Source of the DNA: Rhizodiscina lignyota
Lineage: Eukaryota
Assembly (NCBI GenBank): GCA_010015805.1
Contig: ML978124.1
Span: 2,356,001-2,420,000 of the forward strand
Length of the DNA stretch: 64,000 nt
Reading direction: 5' to 3'
The position numbers and the translations under genes were made by a program. Numbering within the stretch: position 1 is the first letter of the stretch; each line of letters opens with the position of its first letter. The notes below the pieces were generated by a model. That model did no database searches. It was given only the letters and a program-made list of their open reading frames with translations, and was not told where the DNA came from. Below are positions 9,615 to 20,800 of this stretch, piece after piece.

Positions 9615-12600
9615 TTATTGCGACACTGTGTACACTGACGGCGATTTCTCTTCCGCCTTCTTATCGTTAGCGGTCGATGCATTTGCCTCACTTTCCCATT
9701 GATCCTCATTGTACGGCTCTATAGAGACGTTTTGGAGGTCAGCTTTCTCTAACTCATCCTCAAGCCACATCATGCTTGAAGCCGGTGGAGGTTCCGCTTC
9801 GGCAGGTGTTAGCATATTTCCACCAACTCCATTGACGGGAGCTGTGCCCGTTCTGTTCTCATTACTGTCAGGTGGTGCCCATTCTACGTGATCGGTAGTA
9901 GGTTGCTCTTCTGCCTTCGAATCTTGAGACTGGAGTAGCCCAGATTGTGCACGCTCTTGACTCTTGTTCATCTCTTCCGGATTCACCTGCCCTTCTTTCG
10001 GCCAATTTGGAGGAAATATTGGGTTCGCAAATGGATCGTCATCAACACTTGCCGATACTCTTGGTAAGCTTTTCCGCACGGACCGATCTGGCACTGGCTT
10101 GAGCAATCCTGGCTCTTTGATCGTGTACCCAAGCGATTCACCGTCTCCCTCAGGCCTAAATATCGACACTTCTATCCAAGAGCGCTTCTTGCCTGCCTCA
10201 TCCTGGGCAATTTGCTCTTCAGCAGTTTCCGCAGAATCCTCAGCATCAATGATGCCCATCGCCTGGCCTTCTGTCCTCTCTAGAGCCTTCTGCAATTTCT
10301 CCCGATCTCTGATCCTCTGTAGTTGATCCGTCGTGTGCCTGGTAATCTGCCATCCCTCCAGCTCCATCTGGCGCACTGCCTTTGCAGCGGCCCCTTCATC
10401 CTGACGACTCGAATGCATATTGATAATCGTATTCCACGTAACGCCAGTTACTGGTATGTTGCGCTGGCGCATCATGGCGCGTATCTTCTCCGCTGCATCC
10501 CATCGCTTCTGGCGCACAAACGCGAAGAGGAGTGTATTCATCGTCCATACCGATGGCTCTGGCCGTTTGACGACTTTGAGGATCTCGCCGGAGGGAGATC
10601 TAACCTCGAAGCCTGAGCTCACCATTTCCTTGAGCATGGTAGGACAGAAGCGCAGGGTGTGGTATCTGCGTCCAAATATTTCGATGAAGGTATTGTAGAA
10701 ATGCTCCCGCTCGAGGCACTCTGCTATTAGGGGATCTGTCATGGCGATTTTCGTTAGGTTTTTCCACAAACCCCAGACGCGCCCGAGGCCACTTGTATCG
10801 TCGATGTTGAGCAAATAGGAATGCATCATAATGTGTAACGTCGCGGGGTCTGGTGTTAGCAACGTGACATCCAGCTCCATGTTGACTTCAGGATTGCGGT
10901 GGTGTCTGACGGGTATGCCAAGTTGTATCAATGGTGTTGGATCAAAGTATTGCAGGTAAACGTTCATGAGCATATCGAAAGACTTCAGACGAGATTGTCG
11001 CATGTGATAGGCGCCCACGCAACATAAGATCGCATTGGCGACATAGTATCTCTCCTTGGAATCCCCCGATTTTCGAACGTACTCGGAGGCGTCCACAACG
11101 ATTCTATGGATAAGGTCCGCATCGTCGCTTTTTCGAAGTCCTCGCAAAAGAAAGTCGAACGTATAACTGGTTGGCTCCAAGTTGTTCTGGACGCTCACTT
11201 CGTAAAGGCCGATAGCAGTCGGTAGATCGTCTGCTTCCACTGCGTTTAATACCAGAACGGAGGTAAGCGCCGGTGTCAATGGAATGTTCATTTCCAACAT
11301 TCTTGAGACGACATCGAGCGACGACTGATATCCATCCGCCTCGGCCATGAGCATGCGCAGGATGACATTGCAGACACTGAGAACTGGATAGGAGTCAACA
11401 GGAGCACCAAGATCGATGGCGGCCTGCAGAGCTGACAAAGCCTTTGAGCACAGACGGTCCATAGCAAACTTGTATGAAAAATGAAGAAAAGTATGAGGAC
11501 TGATCTTCACAGCACCATTAGAGGACTGTAACATGCTGAAAAGGCGAGCGACCTGGACTGTGTTGCTACGCACTAGGAGAAGTCGAATAGCTCGGTTTCT
11601 AAACATATTCTCTTGTTTTTTAACCCACCGAATCTTCGAAGTCGAAAGCATCCACTGGAGAGACGCAAGTGCTTCGTCCACATAGGTAGGATCGCGGTAC
11701 TTCCTGTTGTAAAAAGCGAAGTGCGACACGGCGAGGAGAAGGATTTGCCAATTCCGGTGGTTCTGAAATGTCGTTGCTTCGCAGACTCTCATCGCTCTTT
11801 CAGGATGGGAATGCAACACGTAGAGCATGATATGCGCCCAAGTATTTGCTCTCAGTGTATTTGAGAGGCTGCTCCATATCTTCTTCATACCCTCGATATC
11901 GTTCCTTTTGCATTCCAGAATCGGCTTGGCCCATTCAGCGGCGCGCCCATCATAGATGGCTTTCGAGGATCGCAAGTGCGCTGGGATGCTTCGGTCAAAT
12001 TGGCAAGCGAGCATAGCATAGCCTTTCTTCCAGTCCGAGGCTTCCTCCTCCCACCAGTGTGAGATTTGAATCTCCTTACTGTCTTCGAGGCCTTGGCCAA
12101 TCTTTCTAGTTACTGGAGGACTCAGCCGAACGGCTTCAAGCCAAGAACTGTAAGCGTCATGATCCATTGCGGGCGGGTTTGTTTCGATTTCCGCAAGCCA
12201 TCGACGTTGTGTGTCCAAAGGCACCGACATGTCTCGGGATTCTTCGCAGTCGTCACCAAACAGGTCCGCAATTGTATTCTCCGGTCGGTTGACGGGAGGA
12301 TTGGATGCTACCACTGGCTTGTCGGACGACACCTCATGGACGTCCGAATTGTGCACTTCTGGCTTATCCGTGTCATGCTCCGAGTTGGCATTGAAGCTGT
12401 GGATCGGATGCCGCAAAGCTTCCCGCAGGACCCCACGCCCAGGTGCCGATACCTGTCCCTGCTCTTTACTTCTCTCCAATCCATTATGTGCCGCATTTGT
12501 GTTGTATCCTCTCCTTGCGCGTATATACCGTGGCCAGAAGACGAGGAGTCGGTTTGCGGGAGGTGCGCGGATAGGAGAGTTTTGGCTGCAAAGTGAAGCG

Positions 12601-12626
12601 ACATGTGCGAGTGATTGCCGTCGCAT
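9615..12626 (-). CDS. Pentatricopeptide repeat (PPR) protein, probably mitochondrial
   Basis: 1003-aa ORF with Arg-rich N-terminus and PPR-like motifs (PTSYTFDFLLRG, PSVWTMNTLLFAF, VTGVTWNTIINMH). Confidence 0.8.
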   Translation of the reverse strand: MRRQSLAHVASLCSQNSPIRAPPANRLLVFWPRYIRARRGYNTNAAHNGLERSKEQGQVSAPGRGVLREALRHPIHSFNANSEHDTDKPEVHNSDVHEVSSDKPVVASNPPVNRPENTIADLFGDDCEESRDMSVPLDTQRRWLAEIETNPPAMDHDAYSSWLEAVRLSPPVTRKIGQGLEDSKEIQISHWWEEEASDWKKGYAMLACQFDRSIPAHLRSSKAIYDGRAAEWAKPILECKRNDIEGMKKIWSSLSNTLRANTWAHIMLYVLHSHPERAMRVCEATTFQNHRNWQILLLAVSHFAFYNRKYRDPTYVDEALASLQWMLSTSKIRWVKKQENMFRNRAIRLLLVRSNTVQVARLFSMLQSSNGAVKISPHTFLHFSYKFAMDRLCSKALSALQAAIDLGAPVDSYPVLSVCNVILRMLMAEADGYQSSLDVVSRMLEMNIPLTPALTSVLVLNAVEADDLPTAIGLYEVSVQNNLEPTSYTFDFLLRGLRKSDDADLIHRIVVDASEYVRKSGDSKERYYVANAILCCVGAYHMRQSRLKSFDMLMNVYLQYFDPTPLIQLGIPVRHHRNPEVNMELDVTLLTPDPATLHIMMHSYLLNIDDTSGLGRVWGLWKNLTKIAMTDPLIAECLEREHFYNTFIEIFGRRYHTLRFCPTMLKEMVSSGFEVRSPSGEILKVVKRPEPSVWTMNTLLFAFVRQKRWDAAEKIRAMMRQRNIPVTGVTWNTIINMHSSRQDEGAAAKAVRQMELEGWQITRHTTDQLQRIRDREKLQKALERTEGQAMGIIDAEDSAETAEEQIAQDEAGKKRSWIEVSIFRPEGDGESLGYTIKEPGLLKPVPDRSVRKSLPRVSASVDDDPFANPIFPPNWPKEGQVNPEEMNKSQERAQSGLLQSQDSKAEEQPTTDHVEWAPPDSNENRTGTAPVNGVGGNMLTPAEAEPPPASSMMWLEDELEKADLQNVSIEPYNEDQWESEANASTANDKKAEEKSPSVYTVSQ

Positions 12627-12891
12627 AAAGATTAAGATATGTATTCAGCACCGCTCTACCGTGCCATTCTGTCTCGTTGTGTTGAAAGTTGCGATGAAAC
12701 GCAAGATGCAAGGTCGCGGTTCGGGCTCGTAAGAAAAAAGTTCAGGCATTTGGCGCGCCGCGCTCTTGACTCCACCACCCACCACTTTAACATCTTTTCT
12801 CCAACTTCCTTGCATCCGCAACAACACCTCCACCGAGAAATTCACCGCTCATCGCGAGCCTTGCTAAATTTCAGGTTAGCTGTTATACAAC

Positions 12892-13602
12892 ATGTCCTCT
12901 CGCAAAACCCTCGCCGCAGCGACAGAGGATCGCAAAGCGCGTCTCGCGCAGCTCAAGTCTCTCAAGCGCAAACAACCAAGCTACGACCAGCCAGGCGAGG
13001 GCCCCGACAAGGAAGATGGCCCTCCTCCCTCTAAAATTCAGAAATCTCCAACCCCAGAACTATCAGGTGCGGATCTTGCCGCTGTCGCAGCTTCCAAGAC
13101 GACTGACCGCTACCTCTCCGGCCGCAACTTCGACGCCGCAAATCGAGGCCCAAAGCTTGGGTTCGAAAACGCGCCTTCAGAAGGAAAAGTCACGCTCGAG
13201 GCGCAGGCCGCAGAGATCGCAGCGCAAACTAAGGCGGAAGCGGAGGCGGAGGAGGACGTGAACAAGCCGATCGATCTGTTTAGCTTGCAGCCCAAGAAGC
13301 CGAATTGGGACCTTAAACGCGACCTGGATGCGAAGCTGAAGATTCTGAACGTCAGGACGAATAATGCGATCGCGCAGCTAGTGAGGCAGCGCATCGACGC
13401 ACAGAAAGCAAAGGCATTGGAGGCGAAGAAGGGCAAGAAGAATGGTGATGGTGGAGGAACGGATGGCGAGGCTGGTGAAGAGGTAGAAGAAGTGGGAATG
13501 GAGGGTGTTGCGCTTGTGGAGGCGATGCATGTGAGAGAGAGGGAGCAGGAAGAAGAGGCTCGAATGGAGCAAGAGCTGGATGAGGTGTTGGCGGGATCGT
13601 GA
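12892..13602 (+). CDS. cwf18: Pre-mRNA splicing factor Cwf18
   Basis: DRKARLAQLKSLKRK, YLSGRNFD and IDLFSLQPKKPNWDLKRDL are Cwf18/CCDC12 signatures. Confidence 0.9.
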   Translation: MSSRKTLAAATEDRKARLAQLKSLKRKQPSYDQPGEGPDKEDGPPPSKIQKSPTPELSGADLAAVAASKTTDRYLSGRNFDAANRGPKLGFENAPSEGKVTLEAQAAEIAAQTKAEAEAEEDVNKPIDLFSLQPKKPNWDLKRDLDAKLKILNVRTNNAIAQLVRQRIDAQKAKALEAKKGKKNGDGGGTDGEAGEEVEEVGMEGVALVEAMHVREREQEEEARMEQELDEVLAGS

Positions 13603-14901
13603 ATGTGTTCAGTTTCGGCAGTCTTGACAACTGTCACGCTTCAACATATCGTTTCTGGACACTCCAGGGCAAACTCCCTTGCTCATAGCATGCTGTAAGG
13701 AGGATTTTAGCTGCGCTCTGGACGTTGCGCAAGGGCAAAAGACGGCTCACCTGACGGCGATTCAGGTTCGTCCCTTGTCCGTTCTAACCTTTGAATTATG
13801 AGTAGTCAATCTTCTGTGCCCAAGGGGGATTCTAGTAAGATCTCGTAGATTGAACGATCATCTCAAAGCTCACTCTCCAGACGTTCATGTGATGCAACTT
13901 TTTAGTGATACTCATACGAACTACATATTCTAACTCAGAACGCGAGGATATCCAACGAGACCAGCAATATGGTAACGAGTCGACTGAGAAGGTATTGTCG
14001 TCGCTCTCAGAACCACTAATCAAGACATGCATTAGGCTCTTATTTGCAGTTTTCTAAGAATGGTGTATCGAAAGGAATGTGGCCGCTTGGGGGAGTATAT
14101 GAGAATAAGGGAGCACTTGCATGTATATAAACTACCAGTAACTTGTTAAATGGAAATATATCGATAGTTGATTCACATCCCTAAATGTCTTGTGGATGTA
14201 TTAAATGCTAAGTTCCTATGAGATCATTACGCCTGAACGATTGAGGCGGAACTTATGCTTCGCGTTAAAGCTCATGTCCTGTGAACCACTTATCAGAGTA
14301 TTCATCAACATAAGAAATAATTCATTTACTAAGTATGAGCGCGCCATTTTGCACTACTCTATCAAACAATATAGTGCCATGATTCGCAAAAATCGCCCTG
14401 TAGCTTTGTTGCACCTTCTCTACATTGTCTGCCCATATGACTTCCTAACTACGCGTTTGCTCGCCGTAAATAATAGAATCCTTTTTAATTCGCATTACGT
14501 ACTATCATCTTAACTGATGGCTAAGCTATGGGTACATAGTAGCTAGAATGCAGGTGCATAGACAAATGAGTTAGGTATATGTATAAAATTAGATTATAGA
14601 TACATAGGCACCTATAATAATGGTATAGGACGACCTCGGGTTATGTACAACGGCACCCAAAAAAAAAGGGATTGCCAGGAGATTAGCAAAATAAAGACTA
14701 TGGACTTATTTTAATAACAAGTAGTTGATCTACTCGAAAGAATACGTAGAGTTTCATTAAATTTACCCACATTGAAGGCGAAAATGCAACCTTACCACAT
14801 ACCATTTTTACGTCTCAACTCATAACAACACCCAAAAAAAAACTGGAGCTACGATTTTTACTGCATTCGATAGAGCTCATCGAGATACATCCAAAAATAT
14901 A

Positions 14902-15042
14902 GGGCTTGTCCGTGGATCGAACACGGGGCCTCCTGCAAGATAGAAAAAACCCAAAGCAGGAATCATACCACTCCAGAGGAAGTTAGCTCAGCGTCAGAAT
15001 TGATGGGACGGGAAAAGGAACACCAACCTAGACCAACAAGCC
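14902..15042 (-). tRNA. tRNA-Pro(TGG) in three exons (15042-15028, 14970-14950, 14937-14902), with a 57-nt D-loop intron and a 12-nt anticodon-loop intron
   Basis: Joined exons give GGCTTGTTGGTCTAG-TGGTATGATTCCTGCTTTGGG-TGCAGGAGGCCCCGTGTTCGATCCACGGACAAGCCC (72 nt): acceptor stem GGCTTGT/ACAAGCC, anticodon stem CCTGC/GCAGG, anticodon TGG, T arm CCGTG-TTCGATC-CACGG; T5 run just downstream. Confidence 0.88.
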
Positions 15043-15713
15043 GAAAACTTGCCGATTTAAAACCCTTATCTCGAATATATATCGTATTACAAAGATTGTT
15101 GGGACGGGACGGAAACGGGCCTTAGGGACTTTTGATAAAATCAAAAATTTCACAACTTTAATTAACTGGGTAGTACGTCACTTGCTTTTATCAATAGAAA
15201 AGCCTGATTTATTTAACTCCAATTATTAACTCCGATGTATTTGCAAATATCTACCCTTTTTTTTCAAGGAACGGGCAAGTTGTAAGGGCTACGGATAGAG
15301 GGTTGAATTTCCTTTCGTAGAGGGAGCGAGCGAGCGCATGGTTTATAATTTCATTCTTTAAGAGCTACATATTAAAAGCCAATTTGCAACTACATTAAAT
15401 TATATATTCATAACTAGATGAAATCTCTGTCCGACAGGACCGGACGAAAAGCCTGAAAATGGGAGTGGTTGCCGAATAAAAGCCGAGCTCTAATATACGA
15501 GCTGTGAAATGGCCCTTGGAGCACATCCATTGTTCAAGTATTCAACTTCATTCCGCAGCATTTAAGTCGCACAATCGGGTCTTTATTGGTATTGTTCCTA
15601 TTGTGTTTAGTATAGCAAATATATTTCTAATATATTCCCAGGCCATACAATTCTCGCTCAATGCCTCCATATCTTCTGTTACCTCTATTACCTCTTCAAC
15701 ACGTCTACCCAAG

Positions 15714-16565
15714 ATGACAGCAAACCCAACAATTCTCTACTTCGTACCCGAGTCCGTACCCGGCAAAATCAAATCCGACATCACAGAGCGTCTCGTGCAC
15801 GCCTTCGATGCTACGCCGCTAGGTCAATGGGGCTTGGAACACAGGCTATTTCGCAGCTCCGCGGCGACGAAAGAAACCGTTGAAAAGGATGGCAGAAAAG
15901 CGCAGGAATGGCGCTATTTGCATCTACTACAGATGAACATGGGACGCAATGACCTCCTCGGCACCGGGAACGAAGGACACGATGACGTTGCGCTGGTGTG
16001 CTTCTCAGACAGCGGGAGTAGCCTCCCGCCAGTCCCAAAAGCATCCAACACGAATACGGATGTGAAGAAAGAGGATGGTGAAGAAAAGGTCAACGAAGAG
16101 ATGGAGAAGGAGGATTTGCCGATAACATCGATCCCCGCATTCCAATTGCCGGAATATAGCGCGATGCTCAGCACGAAAATGGGCGGGCTGTGGACCCCAC
16201 GTGCCGCGGTACACGTCGCGAACGGTTCCAGCTACGTGATTGGCGATGACAAATTTCTTGTCAGGGTTGGGGAGGTGCGGCAGAGGACTGGGCCGGGCGG
16301 ACAACAGCAAGGTGTTAAAGGTGTTGTTGTGGCCATTGAGATGGTTGGCGCGTCTGATGTTGATAGTGGGGATAAAGGGCTCTCAGACGACGAGAGGGAA
16401 AAGGCAGAAGAGGAAGAGGCAGAATATATGGATCAGATGATTAGGGGGCTGTGGAGGGAGCTCGGGACGGATGGAGGAAAGGAGTTTGCGACCAAAAGGG
16501 GCAAATCGCGGGATGGAGATGAGATTGTAAGGCAGTGGTGTCAGGTGTTGAAGCTAAGAGGATGA
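15714..16565 (+). CDS. MED20: Mediator complex subunit Med20 (Srb2)-like
   Basis: GQWGLEHRLFR and LWTPRAAVHVANGSSYVIG..FLVRVGEVRQ...KGVVVAIE resemble fungal Med20; ATG in AAGATG context at 15714. Confidence 0.7.
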   Translation: MTANPTILYFVPESVPGKIKSDITERLVHAFDATPLGQWGLEHRLFRSSAATKETVEKDGRKAQEWRYLHLLQMNMGRNDLLGTGNEGHDDVALVCFSDSGSSLPPVPKASNTNTDVKKEDGEEKVNEEMEKEDLPITSIPAFQLPEYSAMLSTKMGGLWTPRAAVHVANGSSYVIGDDKFLVRVGEVRQRTGPGGQQQGVKGVVVAIEMVGASDVDSGDKGLSDDEREKAEEEEAEYMDQMIRGLWRELGTDGGKEFATKRGKSRDGDEIVRQWCQVLKLRG

Positions 16566-16586
16566 TTAGATACTACATTGTTTGCA

Positions 16587-17886
16587 ATGGGCCTCTGTGA
16601 AGGCGGCAATGGAGGTCAATTAGTTGCAGTTTGCCCTCTGGTAACCTATCCGATACCCCAGCTGCAGCTATATGCTGAGAATGTATTCAATGGCTTGGAC
16701 CTCGACGGCGCGTTATCGGAAGCAGATTTCCAATAGTATGACCTTGAAGCCATCTCAGAGGATGAATCGCCTGAAGACGGGAGCTCATCGGAAGAACAAT
16801 TGTCTGACGAAGACTATTCGTTTGAAGTTGAACCTTCGCGCGAGGAAGACTGTTGGGGCTTCGACAGAGAGTGGCTACCTGATGCTGAAGAGGACAATGA
16901 CTCCGAAGACGGCCACGGTATCAGGGTGACGGGAAGGACCAGGATGATGACGGCTCTGAAGCTGAAGACTTCGATGACCCCAAAGGTGAGGACGATGATG
17001 ACTCCGGACAATACTCAAACTAACGGTCTAGTTCCTCAACTTCTTCTCACTACAGGAGACTTTCATGAATCACTGGAGCAGCTTCAGAAGGAACTTGAAA
17101 CGCGTATGAGCGCCATTGCTAAGGAGAACGGATGCCCCTGTCCAATCGGAGATATCTGCATACCAAAGGGCTTGAAAGTCTTACACCTACTCAACATATC
17201 GGCGAAATTCCCCAGACGCAAGAACTGGAATAAGGCATGGCAACCGTCACTACTCCACGATCCAGCATACTCGATAAAGCAGATTCTTCTTGAGATTTTT
17301 GCAGATATTGGCAGTGATGCGCTCTAACGTCTAATGGATTCAATTCCCATGAAACTTTGGCATCTCCCGAAAGATGGCAGGCGCTTTAGAGGAGACGCGA
17401 TCTGGAGAAACTCGCCATTCTTACCTGTTTGCGAGAGGTGGTTCGAAGCTGTCCTGGATCTTCTGGTTCAAAATGGCTTGGAGGAGATCGTCGTGTACGG
17501 TATTCTAGCTCATAACACGACAAGACGGTAGATGAAAAAGTACTCGGAGTATGCTGGTTCGGTTCAACTGACCTGTGTTAATCATCCTGAATTCGTTGGA
17601 TTGTATGCTTCCGATGCAGAATTTGAGGAGAATATCGACAAGCTTGTCAAGGTCAGAGAGGAACATGGTCTTGAGGTGCATACGGAATAGATGCGCAGTC
17701 CGCGCAAGGTGAAGAAGCGTCCATATTAAGGACACATCCCTACCCGTGTTTGGAGGAGTATTCGGCATGTTGAGGAATCTATTCATCCCAACTTACGCCA
17801 ACTTAGAAAACTCGTACATTTGGCTGCTCAGCTTTCTTCAACAAAGAGCACCCCGAATACGCAGGTACACTGCAAATGTCAATAGC
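16587..17886 (+). pseudogene. Decayed gene of unknown function with an acidic N-terminal region
   Basis: One protein-like frame interrupted by isolated stops (about 16734 TAG, 17325 TAA, 17529 TAG, about 17688 TAG, about 17727 TAA); the Asp/Glu-rich tract slips into another frame around 16920-17020; boundaries approximate. Confidence 0.5.
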
Positions 17887-20800
17887 CATTACACCTGACA
17901 AGGCACACTTGTGTTCATTCCAAGCCACTTATAATGCAAATGGTTCTTCTAACTCCATACGACTTATCCCTAGCCGTTGTACTAAAGCATCATCGGCATT
18001 CTATCCCGTCACTGTTCAACACCATAGAGCACATGATCTCCGCTTGGTTCCTAGGATGGTTTCCCGGAGTCCTTTCGCGTAGGTGTTGGCGCTGGTATCG
18101 ATGACAGTTTGATAAGTGGCTACGAGGTAATATTTATAGAGAGAAAATTTGGGTGTGCAAGCAGTGAAAGCTGAGACGACGAGTCACAAGCAGAATTTAA
18201 AGTGTCCTATGAAATACTAACTCTGTCATCAGGACGAATACTGACGCCGTCATTTCTGGAACCACCGCCGCAGGCCCGCAATGTCATATTGTTTTGACGG
18301 TCATGGAGGTGGGCGATCGTGAGACGCAGGCTCCGGGCCTAGCGCAGCAGGAGTTCTGGACATGAGATGGTATCGTACGCCTTCGCTTTCCCTGGTTCAG
18401 GATGCTGGGCCAACGGAAAGGGCCAAAGCTCATAAAGTTGGGATGAGGACAGCCAACCCGCCGACGAGAGTGGTTGAGAGGGCTTGAATTGCCCTCGTTA
18501 GGTGTCAATCCTCACTTTGCGTGTCGTATTCGTCTACTGTTCGTGGCGAATGAAGTTGTCAAGGATAGCTGGTATTCCGAGAATCTCTCCCTGACTTCTT
18601 GGTGTGGTGTTTCGATCAGGTCTCAATGCTTCACACAAACTTATACAACTCCGCCGGAGATGGAAACGTCGTCAAGGTAGAATCAGCCCTGTCGAGTCAG
18701 CCCGTACAACGAGTGAGCGAGAGGGAAAGCAGAGTGCCATTTCTATCCTGCATGAATGGCATTTGTGTTCGAAATTCATCATCGTCTGGTATACAGAAAC
18801 TCCCGCAAGGAAGTCCCTTCAAGCCGTCTCACACCCGTCACTGGCTCCTGAAAACTAGACGCGGTTAAACCAGCAGCATGTTCCCGTCTGAGAATCGTCG
18901 TGATGCGCACGGAGTACATCGCTCGATGCAAACTCGGTGAAGGCATCAAGGTGCTTTGTTGAGTCCTTCATCATTAGTAGGCTTATGTTGGACATCTTCA
19001 TATTGAGAGTTGAATTACTCATGGCGAACATTCCAACTTAACAGGGAAATGATAGTGGAGACTAGAGAGGAGCATTGATGAGACGATCAGAGCTTCAACG
19101 AGGAATAACGAACGTAAAGTAAACACTTATCCTATGTTCTGTGCATACTGCGACTCAGAGACATGAGTGTATTCAGACATGCCGTACGAGGTATCGATTC
19201 GGACATGCCGTCTCAAGTGTATTCACCGCAAGACCGTCGGGAGTCTAGCCGCCTAAAGAGGCAATGTCCGATGGCTCTGGCTCTTTTGTCGGTCAAGATC
19301 TTGACCTTCCACAAAGGACGCCAAGAACACATCCAGCGGAAGTCTGGTGTCGGCACTCAATGCACATCGCACCGTCCTGACGCGGCCGTGCGGCCGTCGG
19401 CATCAAGCCGTCGGCGTTTCAGCGCAACCGTGTTTCCAGTTTCCGCATTCGTAAGGTGCGCTTCCTACCCGGTGCCGACGCACCTTACTTCCGACTTCCG
19501 ACGATATTGCCGTGGAACTCCGCTGTGCGGTTTGAGGCCATGCAGGTGTACAAATGTGTGCATGTACATAAGACAAGGAAACAGGAAAGCCCATGATGAC
19601 GACGATGCGTCGATCACGCTTTTCCGAGCCGGCCACTCGGGTCCTTGCGAGGATGTTTGCACTGCAAACGCCTAGGCCTTTGGGCAGCTTTTTGTATCCA
19701 GGGCCAGGCCTTATGTCCCCGTGGAAGGTACATTGGTACCTGGTACCTGTTTGTTTTTGCGGATGAGGAAGTATTTACGAGGGAAATAAGCCGGGTATGA
19801 GAAAGTTGACGTTGGACAATGGCAAAAATAAGAATGTGGATGAGAGGGCTGATGGCTATGGCCAGCCTGAGTTCATGCCTTGGGCCAGGAACGACAGTGC
19901 GGCATCGCATTGATGATTCATTGATGAATGACCATGCGGAAGGAGAGTTTCGCGGCTCGTGCTTTGTCGCGAATCTGATGGGCTTGTTGAGGGCATGCAA
20001 ATTCGACATGCCGAATGAGCAAGAAAGGCCGAAGGAGTGAGAATGAAAAGCTTGTTTTGGAAGGTAACGTGCTTCGGGACATGATGCTGGGAGGGGTGTG
20101 AAGGAGATTCAAGGAAGATAGGGAGGCAAATCAGATGTAAGACGCTTGGGCACGAAAGGGAGTATCGACGATTTTCGTTGTCTTGCGGAGGGTTGCTTTA
20201 TGAAAGAAAGTTTGAATTGGAGTATTACGAGATGGTGTGCTTAAAATATGACATGTGTAGGTCACCCCAAGATCAGTCGGTGATTGGCCCATTAGCGGAA
20301 GGAGAGTGACGGCAAGAGATAATCATATTATCAGATATTATCAGATCTCCATCTAGATTGTGGCAATATAGAACCCTACAGGGAAGGTCACCAGGTGTGG
20401 AGTGCTTGCGGCTCCGCAAAGAATTTGTCTTTTGGCTTGAGGTCCATGCGCTCTCTTCAGGAATTGCGGGCCGACGAAGATTGCCTGGCGACGATTTCCG
20501 TGCGAACAAGCGAATGCTGGTAAATGATGTGCGGGCCCTGCCCTTCCACCATCCGGATGAATTCCGGCAAAGACGGGCTTCGACGTCGGAAGATTCCCAA
20601 TATCTGCGCCATTCGGATGGATGGAGCCAGAGCAATAAGAAAAGGTCTCCATTAAACGGTAATGCTCTTCAGGCGAGCCGTTGCATTTAGGTAAAGACAA
20701 TTCAGGACTTGACAAAGCACGAGGTTGCGTTGGAGATCTGACAGTAACATTGCAATGGTGTCCCTGAACGCCGGAACCGAGTCCAGCGCACTGGTGTCGA

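Follow-up and report, generated by a model that had tools for sequence, protein, structure and literature searches.

A split tRNA-Pro gene

Our subject is a transfer RNA (tRNA) gene in a stretch of 64,000 nucleotides (nt) from Rhizodiscina lignyota (assembly GCA_010015805.1, contig ML978124.1, positions 2,356,001 to 2,420,000), which we call the window and number from its first letter. The gene, a tRNA-Pro(UGG) of 141 nt on the minus strand (14902..15042), has three exons of 15 nt (15042-15028), 21 nt (14970-14950) and 36 nt including the discriminator (14937-14902). They are separated by two inserts of different kinds: an mRNA-type (GT-AG) intron of 57 nt in the D-loop, between tRNA nt 15 and 16 (14971..15027, minus strand), and a 12-nt intron at the canonical position 37/38 (14938..14949, minus strand; 9 T, 2 C and 1 A), which ARAGORN called on the form lacking the D-loop insert. 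The 12-nt intron opens with six T's on the sense strand followed by CT (14944..14949, minus strand; hereafter T6, with runs of other lengths named likewise), a candidate premature terminator for RNA polymerase III (Pol III).

When both inserts (15027-14971 and 14949-14938) were cut in a script, ARAGORN returned a regular cloverleaf tRNA-Pro(tgg) of 72 nt, in which each of the 72 exon positions keeps its place in a canonical tRNA-Pro fold. No tRNA was found in the 64-kb window by ARAGORN with default settings or by Rfam at its gathering score; with introns allowed, ARAGORN misnames 14902-15042 as a tRNA-Lys(ctt) with a 71-nt intron. A second tRNA gene, sought in the window with a regular expression for the B box, was not found.

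Both internal parts of a putative type-2 Pol III promoter can be recognised in the DNA. The A-box-like stretch TGGTCTAGGTTGG (15023..15035, minus strand) runs across the first exon boundary, its GG being supplied by positions 4-5 of the D-loop intron; on our own reading it presumably agrees with the A-box consensus if the variable region is taken as 3 nt. The B box TGTTCGATCC is intact (14914..14923, minus strand), and a TATA-like element, ATATATAT, occupies positions -40 to -33 relative to the mature 5' end (15075..15082, minus strand). Downstream, a T5 run followed by GG (14893..14897, minus strand) starts 4 nt past the discriminator and is the gene's own candidate terminator of Pol III type. 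As the first T run past the gene, it is shorter than the T6 run inside. A T9 run 59 nt past the gene end (14834..14842, minus strand) is a possible back-up.

An earlier description made from these letters, which we call the original prediction, had placed the T6 run, a T4 run, the A-box-like stretch, the B box, the TATA-like element and the T5 run where we find them on rechecking the sequence. It had taken the splitting of the A box for a further conflict with Pol III; the split and its repair by intron bases are as described, but a valid A box can still be read in the genomic sequence, and no conflict follows. The original prediction had also called for confirmation of the homopolymer length, and here a Logan contig of run X1 (mean word depth 146.5), possibly from the same sample, agrees with the window over 14750-15200 with 0 differences. 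Because that contig is identical there, the length of the T6 run is not an error of this assembly. Among the X1 contigs, no paralogue of the gene was found at 80% likeness; only the window's own contig matched.

The D-loop insert has the signals of a spliceosomal intron

The boundary of the D-loop insert can be drawn in three registers, of which only one gives GT...AG ends. In that register the 5' splice site is GTTGGT, with an exon side ending in AG (15022..15027, minus strand), and the 3' splice site is GAG followed by T, a rare type (14971..14973, minus strand). A branch-site motif, CTAAC, leaves 12 nt between its branch A and the 3' splice site (14982..14986, minus strand); a second branch-like motif, CTGAC, has 23 nt after its A (14997-14993, minus strand). 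In a fungal U2-type intron, a CTRAY motif is expected about 10-30 nt ahead of the 3' splice site. The intron also contains the T4 run (15016-15013, minus strand).

A bulge-helix-bulge (BHB), in which two 3-nt bulges flank a helix of 4 bp at the splice sites, was not found at the D-loop insert. Of the 4 pairs of the central helix, the three registers form 1, 1 and 2, and the 37/38 introns of three related genes (L008, L013 and L033; see below) gave 4 of 4 pairs each as positive controls for the test. Its length agrees with that of mRNA introns in the same DNA: 20 heuristic introns from coding genes of the window have a median of 65 nt, with many at 53-61 nt. They come from a strict screen that joins open reading frames, looser settings having been too noisy (388 candidates), and we used them for length and T-run baselines only.

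We judged the splice signals against 2022 curated Fusarium introns (PMC5677156). These carry T at +3 in 6%, G at +4 in 4%, G at +5 in 93% and T at +6 in 66%, a CTRAY branch motif in 91%, and a 3' site of the type RAG before Y in 2.18%. Compared with GTRNGT, the window's GTTGGT keeps G at +5 and T at +6, and its T at +3 and G at +4 are rare by the same frequencies; the 3' end is GAG before T rather than YAG, and so belongs to the 2.18% type. By the Fusarium standard, the putative splice signals are weak but admissible. The insert would presumably be removed by the spliceosome.

Related genes in metagenome contigs

We looked for relatives of the gene with a pattern that joined exon 2 to the beginning of exon 3 across a gap of 0-30 free bases, which drew a sample of at least 117 loci from metagenome contigs. 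Together with the window gene these made 118 sequences, from which we dropped three that ran off their contig and two whose acceptor stem had fewer than 6 pairs. The remaining 113 complete genes include 90 unique ones, that is, 89 unique relatives among the matches listed, and it is these that we mean by relatives below.

At least six unique relatives among the matches listed carry a GT-AG insert outside position 37/38, and all become tRNA-Pro(tgg) after splicing in the script. L022 has an insert of 57 nt (GTAATT...CACTAAT...AAG) at the same D-loop site as the window gene. In the other five the insert is in the T arm: after T54 in L001 (identical with L054; 53 nt, GTAAGT...ACTAA(T/C)...YAG or AAG) and in L034 (57 nt) and L053 (51 nt), both with the signals of the L001 family; after nt 53 in L023 (51 nt, GTAAGC...GACTAAC...CAG); and after nt 57 in L016 (79 nt, GTAAGT...CAG). 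A further sequence, L061, groups with L001 but ends at the contig edge. A BHB was found in none of the seven GT-AG introns, that of the window gene included: no central helix had more than 3 of its 4 pairs, and the helices on either side were poor.

The three T54 introns are homologous and diverged, with their signals kept. The loci that carry them also have in common an upstream block, CATCAATCA...CTCTTCA.AGAG, at about -45 to -10, which persists across the three diverged loci, and a trailer, CTTCTTTTTTGC. L022, at about 340-400 of its locus and upstream of the pattern match at 401-449, differs from the window gene in its acceptor and T stems, where the changes are compensatory by eye. The D-loop intron of L022 has no similarity to that of the window gene beyond chance (p = 0.83), and the first bases of the L022 intron do not rebuild an A box. 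Beyond the tRNA gene itself, blastn and tblastx comparisons of all loci (with 400-nt flanks) against window positions 12000-18000 gave no match.

The T-arm introns of L001, L034, L053, L023 and L016 interrupt the B box, and for the promoter this is a sharper puzzle than a split A box. The T-loop intron of L001 contains a B-box-like GGTTCGACATC. This is reminiscent of the B box that is reported (Frendewey, 1990) to lie inside the Schizosaccharomyces pombe U6 intron.

A run of at least T5 begins no more than 15 nt past the 3' end in the window gene and in 6 of 6 GT-AG relatives, at distance 4 with length 5 in the window gene and at 1 and 5, 7 and 6, 7 and 6, 7 and 7, 15 and 5, and 10 and 5 in the relatives. 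As a baseline, such a run starts in 27 of 656 windows of flanking sequence at least 60 nt from the genes (4.1%); the other relatives listed have one within 20 nt in 44 of 83 cases.

Similar introns in the Aspergillus niger gene list

A second source of comparison was the S1 Table of PMC6108506, which holds 284 tRNA gene models of Aspergillus niger NRRL3 with their sequences and poly-T runs; what we report of it comes from rows selected by search terms and parsed by eye. In these rows we recognise 17 models with GT-AG or GC-AG inserts. Seven are tRNA-Asn(GUU) genes with a D-loop insert, listed as Phe1, Phe4, SeC1-3 and two "Pseudo", so that the three "selenocysteine" tRNAs of the list appear to be intron-bearing Asn genes. 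Five are tRNA-Trp(CCA) genes interrupted in the anticodon stem, which the table names Ala18, Ala19 and, in three cases, "Pseudo". Three resemble tRNA-Arg(UCU), with a GCAAGT...CTAAC...CAG insert inside the anticodon, and are listed as Ala2, Ala3 and Ala6; Ala6 apparently also has a 10-nt intron at 37/38. The last two, Asp6 and Phe3 in the table, are adjacent tRNA-Pro(UGG) genes whose D-loop insert lies 2 nt further downstream than that of the window gene. These misnamings are of the same kind as the tRNA-Lys(ctt) that ARAGORN makes of the window gene. In 17 of 17 models a run of T6-T12 stands 0-17 nt past the gene.

The anticodon column of the same rows has no TGG and no TCT, and GTT occurs once, in a model that is not tRNA-like. 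CCA also occurs once, in the intronless Trp model tRNATrp1. This model has a D-arm about 3 nt short and an exon junction identical with the one predicted for the five Trp genes with introns after splicing; it may be a processed copy, or it may represent the ancestral state. The authors of the table remarked that Trp (one gene) and Asn (three genes) were oddly few, called genes similar to ours pseudogenes, and had 0 of their 37 tested promoters from the GT-AG class. To our eye, the list has no credible gene for Asn(GUU), Pro(UGG) or Arg(UCU) apart from those with introns. Unless the list is badly incomplete, the class would then be functional, and looks necessary, in A. niger at least.

These data bear on whether the window gene is a dead relic, with a 57-nt insert that nothing removes and a T6 run that is one more lesion. 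The weak splice sites of the D-loop intron, the rejection of the gene by default ARAGORN and Rfam and the pseudogene calls made for similar A. niger genes (PMC6108506, in the rows seen) are in keeping with decay, as are two features of the 12-nt intron described in the next section: a T6 run that is unique among 90 unique tRNA-Pro genes in the matches listed, and the lack of an anticodon-intron pair. A relic would not be expected, however, to keep 72 of 72 exon positions folding as a canonical tRNA-Pro. Nor would it be expected to have a relative such as L022, with an intron of the same site and length and compensatory acceptor-stem and T-stem changes by eye, and the role that intron-bearing genes seem to have in A. 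niger argues that the class is not dead as a whole. We therefore think a relic improbable.

An internal T6 run and Pol III termination

The 12-nt intron is itself unusual. In genes with a 37/38 intron, nt 32 typically pairs with intron position -3, the anticodon-intron pair. Of 29 such genes compared (28 relatives listed and the window gene), 22 have this pair; the window gene, where T32 stands opposite a T, does not. T or A runs of at least 6 number 12 in 64 kb, two strands together, and with 9 of the intron's 12 bases being T, the T6 run is not a chance feature.

Among the matches listed, an internal run of T5 or longer occurs in 0 of 89 unique relatives, the longest being 3 in 88 and 4 in one, so that the window gene stands alone among 90 unique tRNA-Pro genes. 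The seven GT-AG introns have no T5 run either; this is uninformative, as 2 of the 20 heuristic coding-gene introns have one. In the A. niger rows (PMC6108506), the poly-T run listed for a gene is T5 in 44 cases, T6 in 52, T7 in 62 and T8 in 58; T4 is not listed once. Within the gene sequences themselves TTTT is found 20 times, TTTTT in 1 of 284 models, and T6 in none; the sole model with TTTTT measures 187 bp with a 100-nt "intron" and is not tRNA-like by eye. The T4 run of the D-loop intron, considered as a second conflict with Pol III, was set aside on the strength of these 20 internal occurrences.

For Saccharomyces cerevisiae in vitro, PMC9278858 describes almost no release at T4, intermediate release at T5 and very efficient release at T6, with weak terminators modulated by flanking sequence and upstream RNA structure. 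The window gene holds a terminator-length T run within its own body, which its relatives and nearly all A. niger models lack. Because its own terminator is only T5, a Pol III that stops there should stop at T6 at least equally. The original prediction had pointed to the T6 run as a conflict with Pol III transcription, and the yeast in vitro data, the A. niger table and the 0 of 89 relatives listed all say that the conflict is real.

It could be that Pol III reads through the T6 run often enough for normal output, the run being tolerated in a context of CT downstream and no folded acceptor stem upstream. The exons and the promoter and terminator parts are all intact, which speaks for this reading. 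In yeast, T5 terminators are reported (Braglia and colleagues, 2005) to be weaker when CT follows the run. Termination also depends on context in a more general way, with flanks modulating terminator strength and upstream RNA structure strengthening weak terminators (PMC9278858). Against this stand the very efficient release at T6 without a hairpin in the same source, and the near absence of internal runs of at least T5, with 1 in 284 A. niger models in the rows seen and 0 in 89 relatives listed. In addition, a polymerase that ignores T6 should ignore the gene's own T5 too. We regard ample read-through as unlikely.

Which polymerase transcribes the gene

The original prediction reasoned that the gene is transcribed either by RNA polymerase II (Pol II), which would explain a spliceosomal intron, or by Pol III with read-through or attenuation at the T6 run. 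The first branch assumes that the spliceosome implies Pol II. This assumption fails on the U6 RNA of S. pombe, a Pol III transcript whose intron is removed by the spliceosome (PMC5855946). According to that paper, fungal U6 genes have up to four introns, and spliceosomal introns are found also in the U1, U2 and U5 small nuclear RNA (snRNA) genes and the ribosomal RNA (rRNA) genes of fungi.

Transcription by Pol II, alone or as part of a longer transcript, has the attraction that the T6 run would be harmless, as Pol II ignores T runs, and that spliceosome recruitment is normally co-transcriptional with Pol II. The TATA-like element at -40 to -33 might be added, and the original prediction had mentioned it. 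Of 27 intron-bearing tRNA-Pro genes, however, 8 have an element of this kind between -50 and -25, the window gene and L022 among them. Because the other six of these eight have no GT-AG intron, the element is no pointer to Pol II, nor is it a mark of this gene. The 3' flanks say more. A T run lies directly 3' of the gene in 7 of 7 GT-AG tRNA-Pro genes and, by eye and in the rows seen, in 17 of 17 A. niger genes. Because such a run exactly past the 3' end is useless to Pol II, we read the window gene and its relatives as Pol III units. An A box and a B box have been kept, and U6 shows that spliceosomal removal can do without Pol II (PMC5855946).

The neighbouring genes offer no obvious source of a longer transcript either, since both are on the plus strand, opposite to the tRNA gene. 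One encodes a Med20 protein; the other, at 12880-13602, a pre-mRNA splicing factor of the cwf18 family (Pfam E = 5e-41). We take it to be a coincidence that a splicing-factor gene adjoins a tRNA gene with a spliceosomal intron. HET and Zn2Cys6 genes occur elsewhere in the window and suggest that the host is a filamentous ascomycete.

Judged from the sequence and its relatives, Pol II appears neither needed nor favoured for the window gene, and we hold its involvement to be very improbable. Of the dilemma as first put, the T6 conflict stands, and the need for Pol II is removed by the U6 precedent, the flanking T5 run, the B box and the rebuilt A box. The evidence favours the other of the two options, Pol III with read-through or attenuation.

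Interpretation

The reading that we favour, with a probability of roughly 0.55, is that the window gene is a Pol III gene of an apparently undescribed class with GT-AG introns, in which an acquired T6 run ends transcription early, leaving a weak or failing copy. In this account the gene is a nuclear tRNA-Pro(UGG) gene that would be built for Pol III, its parts being an upstream TATA-like element (about -35), an A box that the intron leaves legible, a B box and a T5 terminator. The spliceosome would take out the 57-nt D-loop intron, as it does that of fungal U6 RNA, and the tRNA splicing endonuclease would take out the 12-nt intron at 37/38, so that two unrelated splicing systems would act on one transcript. 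The T6 run would be a derived oddity of the window copy, at which Pol III would stop after exon 2 in most rounds. Mature tRNA from this copy would then be scarce or missing, and any read-through transcript would end at the T5 run or at the downstream T9 run. The T6 run may have arisen recently by one or two substitutions.

What we observe directly is the anatomy of the gene, the lack of a BHB at its D-loop insert and in the six relatives, the T runs that follow those relatives, and how seldom such runs occur inside tRNA genes. From these we infer that Pol III would make the transcript, that the spliceosome would remove the D-loop intron and that transcription would end at the T6 run. Several points weigh against the account. 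The D-loop intron has weak splice sites, with T at +3, G at +4 and a GAG 3' end. The exons are without any decay, which is odd for a crippled copy. The avoidance of T5 in the introns of the relatives is not significant by itself: their 34 introns are 30% T, and shuffles lead one to expect about 1.0 intron with a run of at least T5, with P(0) = 0.34. The CT that follows the T6 run may weaken it, if the reported yeast effect holds here. The yardsticks for terminators come from A. niger and S. cerevisiae, species other than the host.

For the class as a whole, we lean somewhat towards a wider claim that rests on comparison of gene sequences, those of the A. niger rows among them. The window gene would belong to a functional, apparently undescribed class of fungal nuclear tRNA genes whose Pol III transcripts depend on the spliceosome, and which in A. 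niger would supply what seem to be the sole Asn(GUU), Pro(UGG) and Arg(UCU) genes and nearly all Trp genes. The introns would have GT-AG or GC-AG ends and lie in the D-loop, the T-loop, the anticodon stem or the anticodon, often within the A or B box, and the transcript of the window gene would need the spliceosome and then the endonuclease. In a functional class, the T6 run of the window copy would be either a fresh lesion or a built-in attenuator of that one copy.

According to two recent reviews (PMC10275265, PMC12530127), the tRNA introns of eukaryotes occur only at 37/38 and are removed independently of the spliceosome, and introns of the spliceosomal kind are a feature of transcripts made by Pol II. 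The literature searched, with most subscription journals outside its reach, contained no report of spliceosomal introns in tRNA genes. If the genes work, tRNA would stand beside U6 among the Pol III products that need the spliceosome, and Pol III promoters would be able to tolerate introns within the A or B box. Standard tRNA finders would then be missing or misnaming whole isoacceptor families in filamentous fungi; in the A. niger rows, the affected genes appear as pseudogenes or as selenocysteine, Phe, Ala or Asp tRNAs (PMC6108506). The T6 run of the window gene would provide a clean natural test of the order of Pol III termination, spliceosomal splicing and tRNA splicing on one 141-nt transcript.

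Comparison with known systems

With the textbook tRNA introns that are removed by the endonuclease (PMC10275265), the window gene shares the position of its 12-nt intron at 37/38. That intron differs from the canonical kind in being 75% T and in lacking the anticodon-intron pair, and the D-loop intron differs altogether, in its place at 15/16, its GT-AG ends and its branch motif. Introns away from 37/38, in the D-loop too, and several to a gene are known from Cyanidioschyzon merolae and from archaea (PMC3728597). Those introns are defined by a BHB, unlike the seven GT-AG introns tested here.

The spliceosomal introns of fungal rRNA, U1, U2 and U5 genes likewise lie in genes for non-coding RNA, including rRNA, which is not made by Pol II. 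The host RNA is a different one in our case, and tRNA is not among the hosts listed in PMC5855946. Fungal U6, as presented in the same paper, is alike in other ways: both are short genes of Pol III type for a non-coding RNA, with a T-run terminator and a short intron that has splice and branch sites. They differ in that a tRNA works outside the spliceosome, so that an origin by reverse splicing at the active site, as proposed for U6, is not obviously applicable. They differ also in that the introns described here lie inside the internal promoter, in the A box of the window gene and in the B box of L001, L034, L053, L023 and L016. Finally, unlike U6, the window transcript carries a canonical tRNA intron as well.

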